Positions 13,384 through 14,955 of a stretch of DNA of 64,000 nt are shown in pieces. The stretch spans positions 84,357 through 148,356 of the forward strand of contig JBKBRF010000010.1 of assembly GCA_046292385.1 (NCBI GenBank), given 5' to 3'. The notes beneath the pieces were generated by a model. That model searched no databases, was not told the origin of the DNA, and saw only the letters and a list, made by a program, of their open reading frames with translations. The DNA comes from Armatimonadota bacterium. GTDB taxonomy: Bacteria; Armatimonadota; SYMT01. The position numbers and the translations under genes are program-made. Positions within the stretch are counted from its first letter, which is position 1, and each line of letters starts with the position of its first letter.

Positions 13384-13977
13384 CTAGCGCCCTACTCGGC
13401 CACTTCCCACAAACGGGGTCGCGCCACGCACGTCTTCCAGCCGCAGAACTCCCAGGACTGCCTCGCAGCTCCCGCTCTGGCCGATGCGCCACGGGTCCCA
13501 GGGCCTCCGGGGCAGCTCCGGATCGAAGAGCCGGCTCCAGCTTACCCGGAGCTCGGACTTCCACGGATCGGGGAAATCGCGGGGGTGGGCGTTCGGGTCA
13601 GTGTCGGGAAGCGCAGCGCTCCACCGGGCGTGCTCCCCCGCGGTGACAGCGAGATAGAGACCGCAGTAGACGGTGTCCCACGCCCAGATCGGAAACGTGA
13701 CGAAGCTTCCGGCGGCGGGCTCCAGCTCGATCCGCAACTCCCGCTGGCCCGCCGGCCGGCTGTGCCGGAACAGGCGGAGATCCGGCTTCTGGCAGTAGGC
13801 CCACCAGGGCAAGGTGCCGGGATAGCCGGACACGCGGCGCCCCAGCTCCCCTGCCAGCCAGCGATAGGCGGGCGGAACGTAGGCGTCGTCAGATAGGCGT
13901 ACCTCATCCACCAGCAGCTCGCCGGAGCGCTCCAGTTGCTCCCAGACCTCAAACGGTTGGATGGTCCAGAGTCGCAC
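13384..13977 (-). CDS. DUF3841-like hypothetical protein
   Basis: MRLWTIQPFEVW...AYRWL...PWWAY...KPDLR pattern. Confidence 0.65.
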   Translation of the reverse strand: MRLWTIQPFEVWEQLERSGELLVDEVRLSDDAYVPPAYRWLAGELGRRVSGYPGTLPWWAYCQKPDLRLFRHSRPAGQRELRIELEPAAGSFVTFPIWAWDTVYCGLYLAVTAGEHARWSAALPDTDPNAHPRDFPDPWKSELRVSWSRLFDPELPRRPWDPWRIGQSGSCEAVLGVLRLEDVRGATPFVGSGRVGR

Positions 13978-14016
13978 GGAGCTCGACTAAAGAAAAACTT
14001 GGCGCAACCCGCCATA

Positions 14017-14032
14017 TGGCACGGTTCTTGCT
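14017..14032 (+). promoter_or_regulatory. Sigma-54 (RpoN) -24/-12 promoter
   Basis: TGGCACGGTTCTTGCT matches consensus TGGCACG-N4-TTGC(A/T) exactly; A-tract upstream. Confidence 0.75.
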
Positions 14033-14042
14033 AGAGCCTGAA

Positions 14043-14101
14043 GAGGCTCATTGACTGTATAGTGCTTACGCTCGCCGGCGCCAAAACGCCGGCGATTTTT
14101 T
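14043..14101 (+). ncRNA. Putative sigma-54-dependent small RNA (~60 nt)
   Basis: Bounded by the sigma-54 promoter and a + strand intrinsic terminator; both neighbouring genes are on the minus strand; no ORF. Confidence 0.6.
14072..14101 (+). terminator. Rho-independent terminator
   Basis: tcgccggcg-ccaaaa-cgccggcga followed by tttttt. Confidence 0.8.
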
Positions 14102-14109
14102 CGTCAGCG

Positions 14110-14955
14110 CTATCCCAGCTCGAAGGTGGTGACGCCGAAGACGCGGCGGAGGTCGAAGTCGGGGGCGCCGCGGGTGTACATCCGGGCGGTGTCGAAGACC
14201 GGGACCATGCCGTGGGCCTCGGCGAGGCGGACTGCCTCCCGGTGCGGCGCGGGGACATCCAGGAAGATTGGCTGGTCCGGCGCCTGTGCAGCGAGGCCGC
14301 TGAAGAGCCCCTGCGCTGTATCCTCGTCTTCCGCAAAGAGGGGGCCGATCTTGCAGCCGCTGCGGCACGGACGGATCATCCCGTAGCCGCACAGGCTGCC
14401 GTCCCGGATGAGCCCCAGCGCGGTCGCGCCGGGCTGGGCCAGCCAGCGCTGGAGGAAGCGGCGGCGGGGGACCGGAAACGCGGTGCGGTCGAACGCCTCG
14501 ACCGCCTCCCACGGCACTTCCGAGAGGTCGGCCAGGCCCTCCGGGACGCTGCCGCCGCCGGTGCCCTGGTAGCGCACGTTCGGGTATTCCAGGCGGAACC
14601 CGGACTTGCGGTAGTTCTCCTGCTGGGCGGGCACGCCGTCCAGCCCCACGTTGCGGCCGTCCAGGTACTCCACCGCCGCGTTCCACACGCGCAGGCCGTA
14701 GCCGCGCCCGCGCTGGCCCGGCCGCACGATGTAGAAGCCGATGAAGCCGAAGGTGTCGTCGTAGGCAACGGCGGAGATGCAGGCGACCGGCTCGCCGTGG
14801 AGCGTCCCGACGAGGAAGCCCTGGGGGTCGGTGGCATGGAACGCCTCCGCGTCGTGAAGGCCGGGGTTCCATCCCTCCGCCGCGGCCCACTCGACGGCGA
14901 TCGCCTCCAGCTCGCGCCGGCTCATGCGGCGGATCTCGAAGCCGGCTTGCGTCAT
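14110..14955 (-). CDS. GNAT family N-acetyltransferase (YitH-like, two-domain)
   Basis: WAAAEGWNPG, RGRGYG acetyl-CoA motif, KIGPLFA, VFGVTTFELG. Confidence 0.88.
   Translation of the reverse strand: MTQAGFEIRRMSRRELEAIAVEWAAAEGWNPGLHDAEAFHATDPQGFLVGTLHGEPVACISAVAYDDTFGFIGFYIVRPGQRGRGYGLRVWNAAVEYLDGRNVGLDGVPAQQENYRKSGFRLEYPNVRYQGTGGGSVPEGLADLSEVPWEAVEAFDRTAFPVPRRRFLQRWLAQPGATALGLIRDGSLCGYGMIRPCRSGCKIGPLFAEDEDTAQGLFSGLAAQAPDQPIFLDVPAPHREAVRLAEAHGMVPVFDTARMYTRGAPDFDLRRVFGVTTFELG

Follow-up and report, generated by a model that had tools for sequence, protein, structure and literature searches.

The 64,000-nt stretch of Armatimonadota DNA analysed here (the window) carries, judging by its letters and those of related genomes, one copy of an uncatalogued, conserved small RNA (sRNA) family of that phylum, which belongs to a known kind of RNA. 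The locus is probably a stand-alone non-coding gene for a 57-nt RNA (14045-14101), with a 5' seed predicted to pair with start-codon regions and block translation. A trans-acting, Hfq-type sRNA with 5' seed pairing over start codons is the best reading of the locus. Such an RNA would likely silence mRNAs, among them possibly the message for a pilus or secretion channel of the outer membrane, in a little-studied phylum.

The genome of the window (G000; 7.04 Mb, 69% G+C, 98% complete) has the following features at the locus. Both neighbouring genes lie on the minus strand, in agreement with the preliminary description.

13384-13977, minus strand: DUF3841 gene, neighbour of the sRNA unit
14017..14032, plus strand: sigma-54 (-24/-12) promoter box TGGCACG-N4-TTGCT, kept in all seven copies of the family (mean pairwise identity 0.85)
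14033..14044, plus strand: spacer of 12 nt from the box to the predicted start; 12 nt long in all seven copies, identity 0.27, final base a pyrimidine in six of seven
14045..14057, plus strand: conserved 5' seed GGCUCAYUGACUG, predicted +1 at 14045; 12 of 13 columns invariant over seven copies, identity 0.96
14058..14071, plus strand: variable linker ahead of the hairpin; identity 0.41 over its first 10 nt, U-rich in most copies
14072..14095, plus strand: terminator hairpin predicted by folding, nine pairs (eight G-C), loop of 6; a 3' hairpin is found in every copy, from differing letters
14096..14101, plus strand: U6 tail (T6 in DNA) directly after the hairpin, predicted 3' end
14110-14955, minus strand: GNAT acetyltransferase gene, neighbour of the sRNA unit

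The letters at 14017-14032 on the plus strand (TGGCACG-GTTC-TTGCT) were the only strict sigma-54 box in the window; in 100 shuffles no such match arose. Genome-wide, six strict boxes were observed versus 0.43 expected, two of them preceding sRNA copies. Other -24/-12 spacings yielded zero or one match each, the enrichment being confined to the correct spacing. No sigma-70-type promoter was found in 13700-14300. The box, hairpin and T6 reported earlier on the plus strand were all present. The same description had placed the 5' end near 14043 and the length at about 59 nt; a short RNA remains the reading, but its start has moved. The conserved block begins at 14045, and because the spacer letters are free, the initial GG is invariant and the preceding base is a pyrimidine in six of seven copies, we infer a start at 14045 and a likely length of 57 nt. 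The seed of the window copy is unpaired in the centroid structure, and the U-rich linker (14058..14071) is likely the Hfq contact. A small peptide product was rejected, since the frame from TTG runs for three codons only and the C variants of the seed do not have it. Just upstream of the box, a minus-strand terminator-like hairpin with a T-rich tail occupies 14014-14000; it would end the GNAT mRNA after the whole sRNA gene had been crossed, 20 nt before the DUF3841 start.

The unit consists of the box, a spacer of exactly 12 nt, the block GGCTCAYTGACTG, a variable linker, the hairpin and a U-tail. It has seven copies in six genomes: two in G000 and, from pattern searches, one each in G001, G002, G005, G006 and G007. 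The box lies at the same 12-nt distance from the predicted 5' end in all seven. The paralogue in G000 (C52:9254) was detected among the five other strict boxes of the genome; the 12-nt distance recurs there, the next 15 letters are identical and the terminator is another one. Beyond the box and these 15 nt of seed, the two copies have nothing in common. Mean pairwise identity over the seven copies was highest in the 13-nt block (0.96) and the box (0.85), as against 0.30 upstream of the box, 0.27 in the spacer and 0.41 after the block. The flanks and hairpin letters turn over (0.27-0.41) while box and seed persist. A 3' hairpin with a U-tail folds in seven of seven copies, each time from different letters; it is the sole structure common to all, and covariation could not be counted cleanly because the hairpins line up only loosely. 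The tails comprise 7-8 U in four copies, 6 U in the window copy and an interrupted UUCUUUUU in two. The only variable seed position, position 7, alternates between U and C.

The preliminary description had looked to relatives and a paralogue for conservation of promoter and terminator, and the architecture is kept in five relatives and in the C52 paralogue. It had also failed to recognise the RNA family; likewise, the Rfam search gave no match in the window at the gathering threshold. For the seven loci at E-values up to 10, Rfam returned 10 weak matches, all far below the gathering score and none common between copies. Adjoining genes and their orientations vary between copies, which indicates that the unit is independent. 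An OmpR-type regulator adjoins the C52 and G006 copies, and greA precedes those of G002 and G005; given these differing neighbours, the window copy is likely a later duplicate.

The unit was detected in six of the eight genomes of the order: G000, G001, G002, G005 and G006, which form one family, and G007. rpoN, the NtrC-type activator and the sRNA were each present in the same six genomes. The other two, both incomplete drafts (G003, 69% complete; G004, 90%, 1140 contigs), contained none of the three, which suggests a possible joint loss. Across 401 genomes of the phylum, reversed-pattern controls gave no matches; the pattern matches outside the order numbered three (G045, G144 and G376), and neither these nor five bare-seed matches (one in G004) had the box-seed-terminator unit. 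A sequence model run on 150 genomes scored the seven training copies at 60-71 bits and everything else at no more than 22 bits. Five of the 16 weak model matches were inspected, none with seed and terminator. Three matches assigned to f29 had only TGACTG in common with the seed. The scans of the genome-contig and metagenome collections fixed T at seed position 7, so C variants were missed. One of nine loci in the genome-contig collection was a true copy (L011), with the same letters as the G007 copy and counted once with it; by eye, none of 31 metagenome loci had the unit with the T-variant seed. Viral contigs, scanned with both seed variants, gave no matches. At G147:C10:70009-70081 (L333), a sigma-54-like box is followed by 12 nt, GG and TGACTGTA, then a hairpin that lacks a U-tail; this locus has only half of the seed.

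As anticipated, G000 has an rpoN gene, and its product scores above the TIGR02395 cut-off. Each of the six sRNA-bearing genomes encodes a single enhancer-binding protein. In G000 this activator has a REC-AAA-HTH layout with GAFTGA, and its gene directly follows those for a PAS hybrid kinase and rpoN. The kinase-rpoN-activator order recurs in G001, G005 and G007, and rpoN-activator in G006. The sRNA copy nearest to the activator gene is about 15 kb away in G000; in the five relatives the two are on different contigs. Within the 260 nt upstream of 25 sigma-54 boxes, no shared dyad was found that could mark an activator-binding site. Other conserved boxes precede an HD-GYP/GGDEF gene (G000, G001) and S8 protease genes (G000, G001, G005). 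One more stands before the gene that comes next behind a pilC-like gene (G001:C29:27251, G006:C534:7842) and is absent in G000. Near 23630 on C4 of G000, the gap behind the pilC-like gene has shrunk to about 15 nt and has no sigma-54 box.

Several further observations concern these boxes. Between the kinase and rpoN genes, a sigma-54 box points back into the kinase gene on the minus strand (G000:C52:22993; G005:C1:674090-674105), which suggests an antisense feedback transcript. A 38-codon, peptide-precursor-like ORF (G000:C21:100139-100255, minus strand) lies divergent to the box that precedes the HD-GYP/GGDEF gene. At L029, L031, L034 and related metagenome loci, a conserved sigma-54 box is followed by a structured leader that is unrelated to the sRNA family and in our view resembles the c-di-GMP-I riboswitch.

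Hfq-dependent sRNAs are described as carrying a seed of 8-15 nt 5' of a terminator with a U-tail, which by an enteric rule has 7 or more U (PMC6582626). The 13-nt block, 5' of an intrinsic terminator in seven of seven copies, fits this class I plan. Hfq was found in seven of the eight genomes of the order, the main protein scoring above the TIGR02383 cut-off; no Hfq turned up in G002, a genome that bears the sRNA and is 80% complete. The best match of the main Hfq among solved structures is 3ahu, which we take to be Bacillus subtilis Hfq. Five of the eight genomes also carry a second Hfq-like gene, a divergent one whose product has a long tail rich in Arg and Pro (G000:C20:81280-81456; L180:1586-1999). 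Hfq annealing is reported to rise with the number of rim arginines (PMC10628458). The main Hfq rim reads RKEG, with one arginine; this, the 6 U of the window copy and the interrupted tails of two others count against a simple Hfq model.

The seed complement, CAGTCARTGAGCC or CAGUCA(A/G)UGAGCC, contains an AUG or GUG start codon; base pairing in trans is a proposal. Under the proposed mechanism, the PAS hybrid kinase would phosphorylate the sole activator, and the phosphorylated activator would let sigma-54 polymerase fire the sRNA promoter. Hairpin and U-tail would end the sRNA and bind Hfq, and the seed, its complement holding AUG or GUG, would cover the ribosome start sites of distant mRNAs. 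In that case the sRNA would provide the repression within a small sigma-54 regulon linked to surface structures and c-di-GMP.

Potential targets were scored by sequence complementarity, with no accessibility term, at gene starts from a simple gene caller that contain errors. Aligned on the start codon, three G000 genes agreed with the seed complement in 12 of 13 positions, compared with 0.31 for shuffled seeds (4 of 300 reached this number). At a threshold of 11.5, there were six genes versus 1.19 (1 of 300); the enrichment vanished at looser thresholds (44 and 90 of 300 shuffled seeds). We compared five G000 candidates in the relatives, a set that excluded the sigma factor on C28, a small ORF on C55, the C42 site and the gene at C14:134466. 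Four of the five were rejected: rpoD (a 15-bp match in G000 that the relatives have not kept), an O-antigen ligase (ranks 0.23-0.93 in four relatives, with uncertain orthology), a PRC-barrel gene (found among relatives only in G005, where the site is lacking) and the hybrid kinase (pairing in G000 only). The start regions of rpoN, the activator and hfq in G000 were likewise rejected, and perfect 11-mer sites in the five relatives indicated no shared gene.

The fifth candidate, a secretin gene (PF00263; G000:C5:178792-180672), is the best target lead, and the sequence comparisons are suggestive only: it may be a target, although we put this somewhat short of probable. The gene ends a four-gene operon. 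Its product is GspD/PilQ-like, yet below both cut-offs; the other three operon proteins gave no family match and, from the layout only, may be PilN/O/P-like. Against 400 background starts, the secretin start region ranked at 0.4% in G000 and, in the relatives not used for picking it, at 1.6% (G001), 0.9% (G006), 6.4% (G005), 17% (G002) and 17% (G007). The combined Fisher statistic over these five relatives was 30.3, reached by none of 250 shuffled seeds; from G002, G005 and G007 alone, leaving aside the genus of G001 and G006, the signal had p = 0.051. In G003 and G004, which do not have the sRNA, the rank was 26-78%. Seed position 7 would pair as U:A in G000 and G007 and as C:G in G001 and G006 (one genus); in G005 it stays unpaired, and in G002 its pairing depends on the model. 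The pairing registers vary between genomes, G001 needing a 15-nt bulge, and part of the site is forced by the last codons of the upstream gene and is common to G004, which is without the sRNA. The secretin topped 1037 G000-G001 pairs in a comparison that covered about 2.1 of the 5.2 Mb of G001, but the leading pair was better still with 4 of 25 shuffled seeds. Among eight upstream regions inspected, only that of G007 has a sigma-54 box before the secretin operon.

Five rival explanations were considered, which even in combination appear improbable to us. The one that survives best, though we find it unlikely, is that the RNA is a protein decoy whose 13-nt block is a protein-binding site, as when CrcZ titrates Hfq or CsrB titrates CsrA. 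Decoy RNAs usually repeat their binding site; here the block occurs once per RNA. A decoy of the CsrB/RsmY type would have repeated GGA loops and a host with CsrA; the window copy has no GGA, and CsrA was not found in the 98% complete G000. The U/C alternation confined to one seed position is what pairing would predict, and the start-codon enrichment and secretin signal also point away from a decoy. In its favour, all mRNA targets are still candidates and the second Hfq-like gene is present in five of eight genomes. CrcZ and CrcY, moreover, are described as RpoN-linked and acting through Hfq (PMC6292655, PMC4063720).

It is less likely again that the RNA is a sponge pairing with another small RNA and not with mRNAs. 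This would suit a short RNA with one conserved block, of whose five mRNA candidates only one survived comparison; however, no second sRNA-like unit was recognised by eye among the top-scoring complementary sites listed in G000 (of 182). We regard as very unlikely that the conserved 13 bp are a DNA operator over the start of a sigma-54 promoter and the RNA a by-product. A TCA-N-TGA dyad is indeed visible in the block and its distance from the box is fixed, but with a terminator within about 45 nt in seven of seven copies the promoter would be left without anything else to transcribe, and behind the other sigma-54 boxes inspected the block is missing. A cis-antisense RNA against the GNAT 3' UTR or the DUF3841 leader, which the hairpin at 14014-14000 would accommodate by letting the GNAT mRNA cross the whole unit, is slightly less credible still: the seed is kept while the neighbours differ between copies, and both G007 neighbours are on the strand of the sRNA itself. 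A chance motif beside an ordinary terminator would be allowed by the fact that the sRNA is known here from sequence alone, and is scarcely tenable in view of seven copies with fixed spacing and empty reversed-pattern controls.

Returning to the trans-acting sRNA, a broader and more speculative proposal, which we think doubtful as a whole, is that in this order the sole sigma-54 activator works largely through this dedicated RNA. The RNA would mask the start codon of a pilus or secretion secretin and so shut it off, and the activator would at the same time switch on c-di-GMP enzymes and proteases. If this were true, then, counting the unrelated anti-Shine-Dalgarno family of another branch, sigma-54-to-sRNA circuits of the Qrr type would have arisen at least twice in Armatimonadota, far from Proteobacteria. 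The candidate circuit is compact and fully specified (kinase, activator, promoter, seed and candidate target) and could be rebuilt in E. coli. With it one could also ask if seed pairing works in a 69% G+C organism whose Hfq has a single rim arginine. A literature search, with subscription journals and supplements outside its scope, found among the papers listed no description of an Armatimonadota regulatory RNA or of a GGCTCAYTGACTG RNA; Armatimonadota and Hfq were co-mentioned only in an unrelated context.

Among known systems, the sRNA resembles RybB, MicA and OmrA/B in being short, with a conserved 5' seed, a U-rich linker and one terminator hairpin, and in its predicted start-region action and outer-membrane lead target. 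Those are 5'-seed, Hfq-dependent sRNAs acting on envelope genes and driven by sigma-E or OmpR, whereas the promoter here is of the sigma-54 type and no Rfam sequence match links them. GlmY/GlmZ, CrcZ/CrcY and NrsZ, whose transcription is linked to sigma-54, exceed the sRNA in length and include two decoys, GlmY and CrcZ; again, no Rfam match connects them to it.

Qrr sRNAs of Vibrionaceae act by Hfq-dependent base pairing, exist in multiple copies and are about twice as long as 57 nt. The likeness lies in a sigma-54 promoter and a response-regulator activator putatively fed by a kinase, and would, with that to Pxr, extend the Qrr/Pxr design to a distant phylum. The differences are a length of about 57 nt with one hairpin, no Rfam match, an activator under the LuxO cut-off (376 versus 800 bits) and no activator gene beside any copy. 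By comparison, a qrr adjoins luxO in 20 of 21 taxa, and histidine kinases feed a REC-type enhancer-binding protein that, once phosphorylated, activates the Qrr promoter (PMC10162802). The myxobacterial Pxr has an apparent sigma-54 promoter, and its paralogues each have their own (PMC5568312), as does the paralogue here. Pxr is described as a processed RNA of 108 nt with three stem-loops, encoded downstream of nla19 in hosts without Hfq (PMC5568312); here only the terminator hairpin is common to the copies, the gene is not beside that of the activator, and no Rfam match was found.

A parallel within the phylum is another sigma-54 sRNA family, whose core is of the anti-Shine-Dalgarno type (G026, G051, G075, G086, G332, G367 and G377; families f19 and f26). 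Its core is CATCTTTTTCTCCTTCC-like and not GGCTCAYTGACTG, it lies outside the order of G000, and the sequence model of the GGCTCAYTGACTG family gives it at most a weak, promoter-only score (G026, 16 bits). Like the family described here, it combines a strict box, a distance of 12-13 nt, a purine start (mostly GG) and a short RNA with a terminator, in several copies per genome, of which up to three are in tandem (G377:C84:8127-8525).
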